The notes under the pieces are model-generated. The model had not been told where the DNA came from and did not search any database. It was given only the letters and a program-made list of their open reading frames with translations. 64,000 nt of DNA from Escherichia coli. GTDB taxonomy: Bacteria > Pseudomonadota > Gammaproteobacteria > Enterobacterales > Enterobacteriaceae. Positions 9,105-57,553 of this stretch are shown piece after piece (position 1 is the stretch's first letter; each line of letters starts with the position of its first letter). The stretch lies in NCBI RefSeq assembly GCF_003991155.1, contig NZ_CP031293.1. One strand, written 5' to 3'. Both the position numbers and the translations under genes were made by a program.

Positions 9105-9131
9105 TTTTCGTTGTTGATGTGAGTATGGTTT

Positions 9132-9161
9132 GCCGGATACGGTGTAAACGCCTTATCCGGC
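9132..9161. repeat. REP element (GCCGGATACGGTGTAAACGCCTTATCCGGC)
   Basis: Matches canonical E. coli REP palindrome consensus. Confidence 0.8.
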
Positions 9162-9186
9162 AATGCTATATCAGGCTGAGGCCAAA

Positions 9187-15287: not shown

Positions 15288-15329
15288 AGTTTCCCCCGGT
15301 GTAAAGCGTGCGTCAGATAAGACACAACT

Positions 15330-15419
15330 GCGTCGCATCAGGCATCTCGCACAACCGCCGGATGCGGCGTGAATGCCTTATCCGGCGGCCCACAAGTCGG
15401 CATCAGGCATTGATGCCCC
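15330..15419. repeat. REP/BIME-type extragenic palindromes (includes GCCGGATGCGGCGTGAATGCCTTATCCGGC)
   Basis: REP consensus visible between ytfR and ytfQ. Confidence 0.8.
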
Positions 15420-24846: not shown

Positions 24847-24942
24847 GCCGGATGCGGCGTAAACGCCTTGCCAGGCCTACAAAATCGTCCAAAATCAATA
24901 AATTGTGGGGACTGCGTAGGCCTGTTCGGCATAGCGCATCAG
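24847..24942. repeat. REP elements downstream of msrA
   Basis: GCCGGATGCGGCGTAAACGCCTTGCCAGGCCTAC and a second inverted copy. Confidence 0.75.
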
Positions 24943-25121
24943 CCAGTTTTTCATTTTTCAGCTGTCTGAATTTTAACCCTCTGGCGGCTTTACAGTACCT
25001 TACGCTATACTAGCCACTGAAAATGCCGGTTCACTTTCTTCGAATCGGCTTTCAATGTGTATTTCACACAAATTAATCAACTTCCCCTTCCGAGGATCTG
25101 GCCTAAAAGGTCGGATAAGAT

Positions 25122-27056: not shown

Positions 27057-27614
27057 ATGACCCTACGCAAGATTCTGGCACTCACCTGCCTGCTGTTGCC
27101 GATGATGGCTTCCGCACATCAGTTCGAAACCGGTCAGCGAGTGCCGCCGATTGGCATCACCGATCGTGGCGAGTTGGTGCTTGATAAAGATCAGTTTAGC
27201 TACAAAACCTGGAACAGCGCGCAGTTAGTGGGAAAAGTGCGAGTACTGCAACATATTGCTGGTCGCACCTCTGCAAAAGAGAAAAACGCGACGCTGATTG
27301 AAGCGATTAAATCAGCGAAGTTACCGCACGATCGTTACCAGACCACCACCATTGTTAACACCGACGACGCAATTCCGGGTTCCGGCATGTTTGTGCGCAG
27401 CAGTCTGGAGAGTAATAAAAAGCTTTATCCCTGGTCGCAGTTTATTGTTGATAGCAATGGCGTCGCACGCGGTGCCTGGCAGCTGGATGAAAAAAGTTCC
27501 GCTGTAGTGGTGCTGGATAAAGACGGTCGCGTGCAATGGGCCAAAGACGGGGCGCTTACTCAGGAAGAGGTGCAGCAAGTGATGGACCTGCTGCATAAAT
27601 TAATTAATAAATAG
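27057..27614 (+). CDS. ytfJ: Periplasmic protein YtfJ (184 aa)
   Basis: Translation [31 protein letters not shown]... with signal peptide. Confidence 0.88.
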
Positions 27615-28344
27615 ACACTCTGAACCCCGGATTCAGGAACGACTCGCGCGGAGTGTAATCCAGCGGTTTACCCTGCCAGTCGTGAACGTGCGCTCCGGCA
27701 GCCGCAGCCACAGCATGACCAGCGGCGGTATCCCAAATATTCGTTGGCCCGAAACGCGGGTACAGCTGCGCCTGTCCTTCCGCCACCAGGCAGAATTTCA
27801 GCGAAGAGCCGATGGACGTGGTCTGATGTTCGCCAAGCTGTTGCAGATACTCTTTCAGCTCCGCATCTGCATGGGAACGGCTGATCACCACCAGCGGCGG
27901 GCGCGCATCACGGACCTGAATCTGCTTGCGCACGCCGCACTCTTCTTTCCACGCTTTGCCTTCTGCCGCGCTGTACATTACGTTCATTACCGGCGCATAC
28001 ACCACACCTAAAATCGGTTTGCCGTGGTCGATGAGCGCAATGTTAACGGTAAATTCGCCATTACGTTTAATAAACTCTTTAGTACCATCCAGCGGGTCTA
28101 CCAGCCAGTAACGCTGCCAGTGCTGACGGACTTCCCAACCGGGAGGATCTTCTTCAGAAAGGACCGGAATATCCGGTGTCAGCGTACGTAAACCGTCCAT
28201 GATAACGGTGTGTGCGGCAATATCCGCTGCCGTTACCGGAGAATTGTCCGCTTTGCTGACGACGTCCATCGGTTTCGTCCCGTCGTAGACCTGCATAATG
28301 GCATCGCCTGCATTCCGTGCAAGCTGGCATACTTGATCTAACAT
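27604..28344 (-). CDS. cysQ: 3'(2'),5'-bisphosphate nucleotidase (246 aa)
   Basis: Translation [22 protein letters not shown]...; inositol monophosphatase-family motifs. Confidence 0.95.
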
Positions 28345-28533: not shown

Positions 28534-30477
28534 ATGATTAAGTTTAGCGCAACGCTCCTGGCCACGCTGATTGCCGCCAGTGTGAATGCAGCGACGGTCG
28601 ATCTGCGTATCATGGAAACCACTGATCTGCATAGCAACATGATGGATTTCGATTATTACAAAGACACCGCCACGGAAAAATTCGGACTGGTACGTACGGC
28701 AAGCCTGATTAACGATGCCCGCAATGAAGTGAAAAACAGCGTACTGGTCGATAACGGCGATTTGATTCAGGGGAGTCCGCTGGCAGATTACATGTCGGCG
28801 AAAGGATTAAAAGCAGGTGATATTCACCCAGTGTATAAGGCATTAAATACGCTGGACTATACCGTCGGCACGCTTGGCAACCATGAGTTTAACTACGGTC
28901 TGGATTACCTGAAAAATGCGCTGGCGGGAGCGAAATTCCCTTATGTAAATGCCAACGTCATTGACGCCAGAACCAAACAGCCAATGTTTACGCCGTATTT
29001 AATTAAAGACACCGAAGTGGTCGATAAAGACGGAAAAAAACAGACGCTGAAGATTGGCTATATTGGCGTCGTACCGCCGCAAATCATGGGCTGGGATAAA
29101 GCTAATTTATCCGGGAAAGTGACGGTGAATGATATTACCGAAACCGTGCGCAAATACGTGCCTGAAATGCGCGAGAAAGGTGCCGATGTCGTTGTCGTTC
29201 TGGCGCATTCCGGGCTGTCTGCCGATCCGTATAAAGTGATGGCGGAAAACTCAGTTTATTACCTCAGTGAAATTCCGGGCGTTAACGCCATTATGTTTGG
29301 CCATGCTCACGCCGTTTTCCCAGGTAAAGATTTTGCTGATATCGAAGGAGCTGATATCGCGAAAGGCACGCTGAATGGTGTTCCGGCGGTAATGCCAGGC
29401 ATGTGGGGCGATCATCTTGGTGTGGTCGACTTACAACTCAGTAATGACAGCGGTAAATGGCAGGTAACACAGGCGAAAGCGGAAGCACGACCGATTTACG
29501 ACATCGCTAATAAAAAATCCCTCGCGGCGGAAGACAGCAAGCTGGTAGAAACACTCAAAGCCGATCACGATGCCACACGCCAGTTCGTCAGCAAGCCAAT
29601 CGGTAAATCTGCCGACAATATGTATAGCTATCTGGCACTGGTGCAGGACGATCCGACCGTGCAGGTGGTGAACAACGCGCAAAAAGCGTATGTCGAGCAT
29701 TACATTCAGGGCGATCCGGATCTGGCAAAACTGCCAGTGCTTTCAGCTGCCGCACCGTTTAAAGTTGGTGGTCGCAAAAATGACCCGGCAAGCTATGTGG
29801 AGGTGGAAAAAGGCCAGTTGACCTTCCGTAATGCCGCCGATCTTTATCTCTATCCCAATACGCTGATTGTGGTGAAAGCCAGCGGTAAAGAGGTGAAAGA
29901 GTGGCTGGAATGCTCTGCCGGACAGTTTAACCAGATTGATCCTAACAGCACGAAACCACAGTCACTCATCAACTGGGATGGTTTCCGCACCTATAACTTT
30001 GATGTTATTGATGGTGTGAATTATCAGATTGATGTTACCCAGCCTGCCCGTTATGACGGCGAGTGCCAGATGGTTAATGCCAATGCGGAAAGGATTAAGA
30101 ACCTGACCTTTAATGGCAAGCCGATTGATCCGAACGCCATGTTCCTCGTTGCCACCAATAACTATCGCGCTTACGGTGGCAAATTTGCCGGTACGGGCGA
30201 CAGCCATATCGCTTTTGCTTCACCGGATGAGAACCGCTCGGTGCTGGCAGCGTGGATTGCTGAAGAGTCGAAACGTGCGGGGGAAATTCACCCGGCGGCA
30301 GATAACAACTGGCGTTTAGCACCGATAGCTGGCGATAAGAAACTGGATATCCGTTTCGAAACCTCTCCGTCAGATAAAGCCGCAGCGTTTATTAAAGAGA
30401 AAGGGCAATATCCGATGAATAAAGTCGCGACCGATGATATCGGGTTTGCAATTTATCAGGTGGATTTGAGTAAGTAA
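28534..30477 (+). CDS. cpdB: Periplasmic 2',3'-cyclic-nucleotide 2'-phosphodiesterase / 3'-nucleotidase (647 aa)
   Basis: Translation [35 protein letters not shown]...; AAAGGA RBS before ATG at 28534. Confidence 0.93.
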
Positions 30478-30479
30478 TA

Positions 30480-30604
30480 CACTTCTTTTTCGGCCTATAA
30501 ATCATCAACCGCATCCGGCACTTTTGTCGGATGCGATGCTGACGCATCTTATCCGCCCTACAAGCCATGAACCGTAGTCCGGATAAGCGCAGCGCATCCG
30601 GCAG
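30480..30604. repeat. BIME-like cluster of REP palindromes between cpdB and ytfH
   Basis: Multiple GCATCCGGCA / TGCCGGATGCG-type REP copies in alternating orientation. Confidence 0.8.
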
Positions 30605-30985
30605 TTATGCCGCACGTTCATCCCGCACCGCTAACACCTTGGGCAAATTCAACTCAATCCAGTCCGCCAGTGCAGCAACCTTTTCGCTCACCTGCTCGCC
30701 CAGCGGCGTGAGGCTATATTCCACATGCGGCGGCACCACCGGATACGCGATACGGTTAAGAAAACCATCCTGTTCTAATGCCTGTAACGACTGCGCAAGC
30801 ATCTTTTCACTCACCCCGCCCATTTTGCGCCGCAGGTCGCTAAAGCGATGAGTACCTTCGCGTAGCGCCACCAGAATCAACACCCCCCAACGGCTGGTGA
30901 CGTGTTTCAACACCTCGCGCGACGGGCACTGTTCCGCAAAGAGATTTCCCTCTTTCAGTTGTTGCGACAGGCTAACCTGACTCAT
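30605..30985 (-). CDS. ytfH: HxlR-family transcriptional regulator (126 aa)
   Basis: Translation from MSQVSLSQQLKEGNLFAEQCPSREVLKHVTSRWGVLIL...; ATG at 30985. Confidence 0.88.
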   Translation of the reverse strand: MSQVSLSQQLKEGNLFAEQCPSREVLKHVTSRWGVLILVALREGTHRFSDLRRKMGGVSEKMLAQSLQALEQDGFLNRIAYPVVPPHVEYSLTPLGEQVSEKVAALADWIELNLPKVLAVRDERAA

Positions 30986-31073: not shown

Positions 31074-31934
31074 ATGATCGCTATTACTGGTGCCACTGGC
31101 CAACTTGGTCACTATGTTATTGAATCCTTGATGAAAACGGTTCCTGCCAGCCAAATAGTGGCTATCGTTCGTAATCCGGCAAAAGCCCAGGCCCTGGCAG
31201 CACAAGGCATTACCGTGCGTCAGGCTGACTACAGCTATGAAGCCGCACTGACATCTGCACTTCAGGGAGTGGAAAAACTACTGCTGATCTCTTCCAGCGA
31301 AGTGGGTCAACGTGCCCCGCAGCATCGTAATGTTATTAATGCCGCAAAGGCGGCTGGCGTGAAATTTATCGCTTATACCAGCCTGCTACATGCAGATACC
31401 TCCCCGCTCGGCCTCGCCGATGAGCACATCGAGACGGAGAAAATGCTGGCTGATTCTGGCATCGTTTACACCCTGCTGCGCAACGGCTGGTACAGCGAAA
31501 ACTACCTCGCCAGCGCCCCGGCAGCACTGGAACACGGCGTATTTATCGGTGCGGCGGGCGATGGCAAAATCGCCTCAGCAACGCGGGCAGATTATGCGGC
31601 AGCTGCGGCACGCGTGATTAGCGAAGCCGGTCACGAAGGCAAGGTTTACGAACTGGCGGGCGATAGTGCCTGGACGTTGACACAGTTAGCGGCAGAGCTG
31701 ACCAAACAGAGCGGAAAATCCGTTACCTATCAAAATCTGAGCGAAGCCGATTTCGCCGCGGCACTGAAAAGCGTCGGACTGCCCGACGGACTGGCGGATA
31801 TGCTGGCGAATTCTGACGTTGGCGCATCGAAAGGCGGTCTGTTTGATAACAGCAAAACGCTTAGCAAACTGATTGGCCGCCCAACGACAACGTTAGCCGA
31901 AAGCGTAAGCCATCTTTTTAATGTTAATAACTAG
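31074..31934 (+). CDS. qorB: NAD(P)H:quinone oxidoreductase (286 aa)
   Basis: Translation MIAITGATGQLGHYVIESL... (NmrA-like Rossmann motif); K-12 ytfG. Confidence 0.92.
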   Translation: MIAITGATGQLGHYVIESLMKTVPASQIVAIVRNPAKAQALAAQGITVRQADYSYEAALTSALQGVEKLLLISSSEVGQRAPQHRNVINAAKAAGVKFIAYTSLLHADTSPLGLADEHIETEKMLADSGIVYTLLRNGWYSENYLASAPAALEHGVFIGAAGDGKIASATRADYAAAAARVISEAGHEGKVYELAGDSAWTLTQLAAELTKQSGKSVTYQNLSEADFAAALKSVGLPDGLADMLANSDVGASKGGLFDNSKTLSKLIGRPTTTLAESVSHLFNVNN

Positions 31935-54893: not shown

Positions 54894-54906
54894 TCTGTCG
54901 TTTATA

Positions 54907-54938
54907 CCGGATAGCGTGGAGTAGTTCGCGCTATCCGG
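54907..54938. repeat. REP-like palindrome (CCGGATAGCG...CGCTATCCGG) after ulaG
   Basis: Read directly. Confidence 0.6.
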
Positions 54939-55000
54939 CGTAGTATTTCCTGGCTATTTCAAATATCATCTAAAAAAATCAAATTTTATCGGAATAGCTC

Positions 55001-57462: not shown

Positions 57463-57495
57463 GCCGGATGCGGCGCGAGCGCCTTGTCCGGCCTA
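57463..57495. repeat. REP element (GCCGGATGCGGCGCGAGCGCCTTGTCCGGCCTAC)
   Basis: Matches REP consensus. Confidence 0.8.
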
Positions 57496-57553
57496 CAATT
57501 TTAAAATATTTCATTTAGTTAATCGAAACCAGCGTCGCATCAGTCGTATACGC

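Follow-up and report, generated by a model that had tools for sequence, protein, structure and literature searches.

The window is a 64,000-nt stretch of Escherichia coli DNA. Positions 30478-30604 of it are exactly the 127-nt spacer, from stop codon to stop codon, between two convergent genes. cpdB, which encodes 2',3'-cyclic-nucleotide 2'-phosphodiesterase, is located on the plus strand (28534..30477) and ends in the stop codon TAA at 30475-30477. ytfH, which encodes an HxlR-type winged-helix regulator, is located on the minus strand (30605..30985), with its stop codon at 30605-30607. The gene positions come from the RefSeq annotation of E. coli strain 2016C-3878 mapped over to the window and, for cpdB, also from the list of open reading frames. 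The 601 bases around the spacer are 100% identical to this strain. In the mapped annotation, qorB (31074-31934, plus strand) follows ytfH, and cysQ (minus strand) is the neighbor on the cpdB side. MG1655 has the same gene order at 4.434 Mb, inverted relative to the window. No REP features are annotated around cpdB/ytfH in the RefSeq MG1655 record. Further from the spacer, this strain lacks ytfI, the gene that separates cysQ from ytfJ in MG1655 (window 27057-28344). The genes ytfJ (ending at 27614) and cysQ (ending at 27604) are convergent, and their 3' ends overlap by 11 nt.

REPs were searched with a covariance model, R1, built from 19 aligned REPs from outside the cpdB/ytfH locus, with the standard REP hairpin as the structure. 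Some seeds came from other parts of the window, the rest from 97 kb of MG1655 sequence in which the rayT-flanking BIMEs are included. The entire 64-kb window was searched with filters off. Eight REP sites were found at E<1e-3, six of which are seeds of the model. The spacer contains two REPs in opposite orientation, REP-A and REP-B. REP-A (GTCGGATGCGATGCTGACGCATCTTATCCGCCCTAC; 30526..30561, plus strand) is an intact REP of the 36-nt class, scoring 34.2 bits (E 7e-6), with the foot CTAC at 30558-30561. REP-B (30574..30604, minus strand; GTAGTCCGGATAAGCGCAGCGCATCCGGC on the plus strand) belongs to the 29-nt class. R1 found it at 30574-30602 with 27.6 bits (E 2.5e-4). Its foot GTAG is at 30574-30577, and its head abuts the ytfH stop codon. 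The two are arranged tail to tail across a 12-nt linker read from the sequence (AAGCCATGAACC; 30562..30573), which is conserved in Escherichia. With the same model and filters off, no other REP was found in the spacer at E<=10.

A scan with the half-site pattern GCCKGATGCG ... CTTATCMGGCCTAC found both elements as well. REP-A has mismatches at two of the 24 anchored positions and an internal gap of 12 nt; REP-B has a single mismatch in 24 and an internal gap of 5 nt. Non-complementary bases inside the stem are required of a REP (PMC3333891). The spacer elements show the features of E. coli REPs: they match the consensus, carry the GTAG/CTAC foot, contain a mismatch or bulge in the stem, and are extragenic and dispersed. 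The 601-nt query matches a median of two places per E. coli genome, with a maximum of six, and one such match elsewhere in an E. coli genome covers REP-A alone, as a 37-nt copy at 97% identity. Aligning 31 hits of the model gave 28 distinct rows, in which 92.7% of the cells are paired, compared to 29-43% with the partner slid, and 21 cells in the same 28 rows are changed on both sides, compared to 8.1 in shuffles; these values lean towards structure because the alignment was fitted to the R1 model. The identity of the spacer as REP DNA and its anatomy are almost certain.

An earlier reading of this DNA from its letters (the sequence-only reading) had named cpdB and ytfH, and the mapped annotation agrees with it on both names and on the convergent junction. 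It had described a BIME-like, multi-copy array of several REPs in alternating orientation, to be checked by a REP consensus scan. The REP/BIME identity was recovered by a model built without this locus and by the half-site scan. The number of repeats was overstated: there are two REPs, and nothing more than one intact pair with remnants. REP-A and REP-B do oppose each other, and the full +,-,+,- alternation is obtained only if fragments are counted. In the scan, REP-A and REP-B had the E-values given above, and the remnants to the left had no score.

These remnants are two REP fragments, the only ones in the left 48 nt of the spacer. The 14-nt CTTTTTCGGCCTAT (30485..30498, plus strand) is the 3' half-site of a plus-strand REP whose 5' half is missing. 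Its foot is CTAT here and CTAC in other Escherichia. We preferred this CTAC-tailed half-site reading because the equivalent fragment in E. albertii, CTTTTCCGGCCTAC, matches the consensus at 13 of 14 positions, and because the fragment aligns with the 3' half (TCTTATCCGGCCTAC) of an intact Citrobacter REP located directly after the cpdB stop codon. A complete, degenerate short REP on the minus strand was considered for the left remnant and rejected, as its GTAG side is absent. The other fragment is the 12-nt head of a minus-strand REP (30509..30520; reverse complement TGCCGGATGCGG). It matches the REP head at 12 of 12 positions and aligns with the end of the second, inverted REP in Citrobacter. 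It is separated from REP-A by the head-to-head spacer CTTTT (30521..30525), the length of which varies by 1 nt among strains.

The head fragment and the head of REP-B are related by a direct repeat, D1 (30510-30529 with 30593-30612), at a spacing of 83 nt. In the three-unit array of E. coli SCPM-O-B-8794, the 84-nt period called by Tandem Repeats Finder begins with the head fragment, which makes up the first 0.1 copy. Neither the half-site nor the head fragment folds (z +0.5 and +0.2). The spacer is one intact inverted REP pair and the debris of an older pair, which we read as a previous copy of the same unit of roughly 84 nt. This arrangement suggests that Escherichia formerly had two units, the first of which may have decayed through two deletions.

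Five single REPs had been listed elsewhere in the window by the sequence-only reading. Four of them, at 9132, 15357, 24847 and 57463, are REPs. They match a y-type consensus at 91-100% over 24-34 nt (blastn-short, E 2e-8 to 3e-10), and a separate scan with a y-type consensus gave two matches compared to 0.00 expected. Their R1 scores are circular because all four seeded the model. "Single" does not describe three of the four: inverted partners are found at 15308-15343, 24916-24944 and, as a partial copy, 57529-57543. The REP between mpl and yjgA (9128-9165) is near-symmetric and scores on both strands (38.5 and 21.8 bits); it has no CTAC foot and ends in GGCAATG. The ytfQ-ytfR spacer contains a head-to-head pair, a 36-nt-class REP on the minus strand (15308-15343) and a 34-nt-class REP on the plus strand (15357-15390). 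This pair is located within the galactofuranose ABC transporter operon; the position after a binding-protein gene is a classic one for REPs.

Between msrA and paeA is a BIME-1-like pair (24847-24944), formed by a 34-nt-class REP, a 35-nt linker and an inverted 29-nt-class REP (24916-24944). Its linker (24881-24915) contains an exact IHF core, AATCAATAAATTG, at 24893-24905, the only one found within a REP element of the window. The element is orthologous to one in MG1655 (L001 11394-11491). Between the convergent aidB and yjfN, a REP at 57463-57496 is followed by an AT-rich linker of ~32 nt and the partial inverted REP. The fifth listed site, 54907, fails R1 (9.4 bits, E 5.1) and is not among the model's seeds. 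It is a perfect palindrome of ~10 bp, CCGGATAGCG...CGCTATCCGG (54902-54939), just downstream of ulaG and upstream of ulaR. Only the CCGGAT/ATCCGG stem is common to it and REPs, and we rejected it as a REP; it is a different palindrome.

For some four decades, REPs and BIMEs have been known from E. coli. BIME-1 elements combine y and z1 REPs across a long L linker, often with an IHF site; BIME-2 elements combine y and z2 REPs with short S linkers and occur in tandem; all remaining combinations of REPs and linkers count as atypical BIMEs, whose copy numbers likewise vary (PMC3333891, describing Bachellier et al. 1994). The partner of y next to rayT is called z1 in PMC3479197 and z2 in PMC3333891. 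Because the two disagree, our classing relies on length: 34 nt for y, 36 nt for z2 and 29 nt for z1. The class names were derived from these two papers and the rayT-flanking sequences, not from the original consensus figures. The 34-nt class was taken as y because it is common to the rayT-flanking BIMEs and the BIME-1-like element at 24847-24944. Because the lower stem, CCGGAT/ATCCGG, is y-like in REP-A and REP-B alike, they are assigned to z2 and z1 by length class only.

Located tail to tail over 12 nt, REP-A (plus) and REP-B (minus) form a BIME. Like BIME-1 (RIP/RIB) elements, it has one member, REP-B, of the short 29-nt class. Unlike them, it lacks the L linker of ~35 nt and the IHF core: the linker is 12 nt long, there is no y-type REP, and the best IHF-core match is at background. 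The resemblance to BIME-2 is closer in several respects, including the inverse REP pair, the GTAG/CTAC feet, the short linker, the extragenic position at the 3' end of a gene, and the tandem copy number and linker sequence that vary among strains. However, canonical BIME-2 (y+z2) contains a 34-nt y-type REP. Here REP-A has the z2 length and its partner is of the 29-nt class. Moreover, the window contains a single intact unit, and REP-B is decaying in some lineages. The combination of the 36-nt and 29-nt classes with a short linker is therefore that of an atypical BIME, neither BIME-1 nor BIME-2, with one to three units across Escherichia genomes. The cpdB/ytfH element is of an ordinary, already known kind, a typical small atypical BIME.

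The pair was also compared to REPINs, which, according to Bertels and Rainey, are reportedly inverted REP doublets mobilised by RAYT. The cpdB/ytfH pair is an inverted doublet that forms a longer hairpin, of a family tied to RayT in E. coli. The sequence prerequisites of a RayT (TnpA-REP) substrate are seen on both strands: the 5' GTAG, the stem mismatch and an iREP or linker CT cleavage site. Unlike a mobile doublet, the pair gave no sign of mobility at cpdB/ytfH and is conserved in position from Citrobacter to Escherichia. In addition, rayT is absent from about one third of E. coli genomes. It was detected by megablast in 3574 of 5426 complete genomes; the REP pair at cpdB/ytfH is found in practically every one of the genomes.

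Comparison across E. coli indicated a stable locus. The 601-nt query is covered to at least 80% in 5405 of the 5425 matching complete genomes, and seven strains share a common architecture with a mean column identity of 94%. REP-B contains a deletion of 5 nt in S88 and of 11 nt in O157:H7 and GN02461. Its R1 score is 23.7 bits in S88 and 11.3 bits in O157:H7, and GN02461 has no hit. The fold is lost in the O157 remnant. In 29 genomes evenly sampled down the ranking, the locus measures 590-602 nt for the 601-nt query, with no expansion. Unit counts were taken from the record spans among the matches listed. The 84-nt unit is single in nearly all E. coli and is found in two or three copies in a few Escherichia genomes. 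Escherichia sp. E1V33 has a 212-nt spacer with 1.9 units of 84 nt, E. coli SCPM-O-B-8794 a 295-nt spacer with 3.1 units, and two complete genomes labelled "E. coli", whose flanks resemble E. albertii, have two units each. The comparison of copy number across strains that the sequence-only reading had proposed thus reveals variation, with one, two or three units, and the variation is rare. NZ_CP144930.1 ('E. coli' SCPM-O-B-9504) has E. albertii-like flanks and two BIME units; its ytfH is annotated as a pseudogene with the N-terminus missing.

Beyond E. coli, a scan for the CpdB C-terminus with one genome per species gave 80 Enterobacteriaceae loci. In 73 of them ytfH is convergent to cpdB, with spacers of -4 to 802 nt. 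The spacer is 128-129 nt in E. albertii, E. whittamii and E69, and in many Enterobacteriaceae it is 0-50 nt without a REP. Several Citrobacter species have a single REP directly after the cpdB stop codon (44-49 bits). In Citrobacter gillenii, C. youngae ATCC 29220 and C. sp. R56, a tail-to-tail pair at the junction aligns over its full length with REP-A and REP-B. These alignments suggest either that the pair is older than Escherichia or that the site was repeatedly refilled. The locus appears to have been duplicated with a period of 84 nt and then to have decayed by deletion.

The junction contains other insertions in other genera. Large, species-specific BIME arrays are found at L034 2401-3110, L067 2401-2764 and L058 2401-2566. 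The array in Superficieibacter electus measures 710 nt with a period of ~135 nt, and that in an uncultured Klebsiella sp. measures 364 nt with about four units of ~90 nt. In Huaxiibacter chinensis a two-gene module is inserted (L065 2441-2978), in which a 79-aa ParD-like antitoxin (PF11903, E 1e-19) overlaps a 108-aa ORF, presumably the toxin.

Folding was analyzed on both strands. The whole spacer folds with -48.4 kcal/mol on the plus strand and -55.5 kcal/mol on the minus strand (z -4.0 and -3.8). REP-A alone forms a hairpin of -14.7/-15.2 kcal/mol (z -3.6/-3.4) with an internal loop. The hairpin of REP-B alone, which contains a 2-nt bulge, is modest (-10.7/-11.8 kcal/mol, z -1.8) and is equalled or exceeded in stability by 10-11 of 200 shuffles. 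When the full-length spacer is folded, the hairpin of each REP has to compete with pairing between the two REPs. Pairing of REP-B in the ytfH mRNA starts at base 30601, 4 nt past the stop codon. The cpdB-side stems start at least 33 nt past the cpdB stop codon. Between 30300 and 30800, no terminator-like site was found on either strand (0, compared to 0.4 expected in shuffles), nor any promoter-like site.

REPs serve as stabilisers of mRNA 3' ends against exonucleases. Because neither convergent gene has an intrinsic terminator, the cpdB and ytfH transcripts would both run into the REP palindromes. There, a REP hairpin could fold in the RNA of either strand and hold up 3'->5' exonucleases. We infer that such barriers may define and stabilise both mRNAs at their 3' ends and limit convergent read-through. 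REPs less than 16 nt from a stop codon are reported to stall ribosomes and lower translation (Liang, Rudd and Deutscher 2015, as cited in PMC12306157). At 4 nt past the ytfH stop codon, the REP-B stem is within 15 nt and may also damp YtfH synthesis. The nrdAB REP is an example of the class of mRNA stabilisers and stop-proximal attenuators. The ytfH side resembles this class, with a hairpin directly after the stop codon and no intrinsic terminator in the 3' UTR; the cpdB side differs from stop-proximal attenuators, with stems that fall outside the 15-nt rule.

At the DNA level, the unit would be a selfish or neutral repeat. Its copy number may shift when the REP heads, direct repeats 83-84 nt apart, recombine unequally or slip, or through the action of RayT, and the unit would decay by small deletions. 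Taken whole, the reading that we favor, a small, partly decayed BIME with a generic 3'-hairpin role, is likely to be correct. For the generic role in the cpdB and ytfH mRNAs on its own, which rests on analogy to other REPs, we put the chance at even or slightly better. Any function of the spacer would be dispensable in the family, because many Enterobacteriaceae spacers of 0-50 nt have no REP. The only paper found to name both cpdB and ytfH concerns promoters and is irrelevant to this element, and the locus did not turn up in the RepRanger supplements.

The element may instead be purely selfish or neutral DNA, leftovers of BIMEs driven by RayT or by recombination at a permissive convergent junction, with no role in expression. 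This is a real possibility, well short of an even chance. The decay of REP-B in several lineages and the many genera without a REP here make it a serious rival. It also accounts for the debris of the older unit, for copy numbers of one to three, for junctions of -4 to 802 nt in other genera that contain unrelated BIME arrays or the ParD-like toxin-antitoxin pair, and for the patchy detection of rayT. However, 5405 of the 5425 E. coli genomes have kept REP-A and the overall architecture, as have Escherichia species more widely. Some Citrobacter still carry a homologous pair, and neither gene has another terminator. The two readings are compatible and do not exclude each other. A different role in expression, as a bidirectional intrinsic (Rho-independent) terminator common to both genes, is suggested by the stable GC-rich hairpins on both strands at a convergent junction. 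It is very unlikely, as neither strand has a hairpin followed by a U-tract and the count of terminator-like sites is zero. The spacer has a negligible chance of encoding a REP-derived small RNA of the naRNA4 (REP325) type. It is REP-derived with a head-to-head hairpin, and Rfam RF02564 matches 30492-30558 on both strands; however, the scores of 27.6 and 25.7 bits are far below the gathering score of 59.5, and the spacer is therefore not an RF02564 member. The abstract of PMC4550694 presents REP325 as six clustered repeats, compared to one pair at cpdB/ytfH, and no promoter-like site was found between 30300 and 30800.

The array had also been said to bind IHF and gyrase, which would make it a nucleoid-organising site. 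The general literature offers some ground for this view: BIME-1 linkers carry IHF sites (PMC3333891), and Topo-Seq located gyrase cleavage mainly in a subset of BIME-2, mostly at y-type REPs (PMC6379681). Protein binding by this spacer is a matter of prediction, and the features seen argue against it. The spacer contains no match to the IHF core WATCAANNNNTTR, and its best candidate has three mismatches; the best match in 127-nt windows of this sequence most commonly has two. IHF binding belongs to the L linker of BIME-1, such as the ~35-nt linker at 24881-24915, and the linker here is 12 nt. Gyrase favors y-type REPs, and by length class the spacer has no 34-nt y-type REP, so that binding is not predicted. 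In the searched part of the PMC6379681 supplements cpdB/ytfH is not mentioned. Recruitment of IHF or gyrase to this pair is quite improbable. As for insertion hotspots, IS1397 and IS621 target REPs (PMC1525189), and the property is a general one of these repeats. It does not extend to frequent insertion here. A contiguous match at the locus is missing from no more than 20 of the 5425 E. coli genomes, a count in which insertions of up to ~800 nt would be joined and missed, and cpdB/ytfH is therefore not a frequent IS site.

The generic label of a REP array that binds IHF and gyrase thus applies to other BIME classes, and the analysis corrects it for this element. By analogy to known attenuators, REP-B could act as a stop-proximal attenuator of YtfH through ribosome stalling and trans-translation, with the deletions in S88, O157:H7 and GN02461 as lineage-specific de-repressing alleles and the junction serving as a conserved landing pad for the separate BIME arrays of different Enterobacteriaceae. 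We regard this proposal as unlikely; if it is true, YtfH output would differ between strains with an intact and strains with a deleted stop-proximal REP. Of modest use beyond annotation, the cpdB/ytfH locus is a clean example of BIME turnover at an orthologous junction, traceable from Citrobacter to Escherichia.
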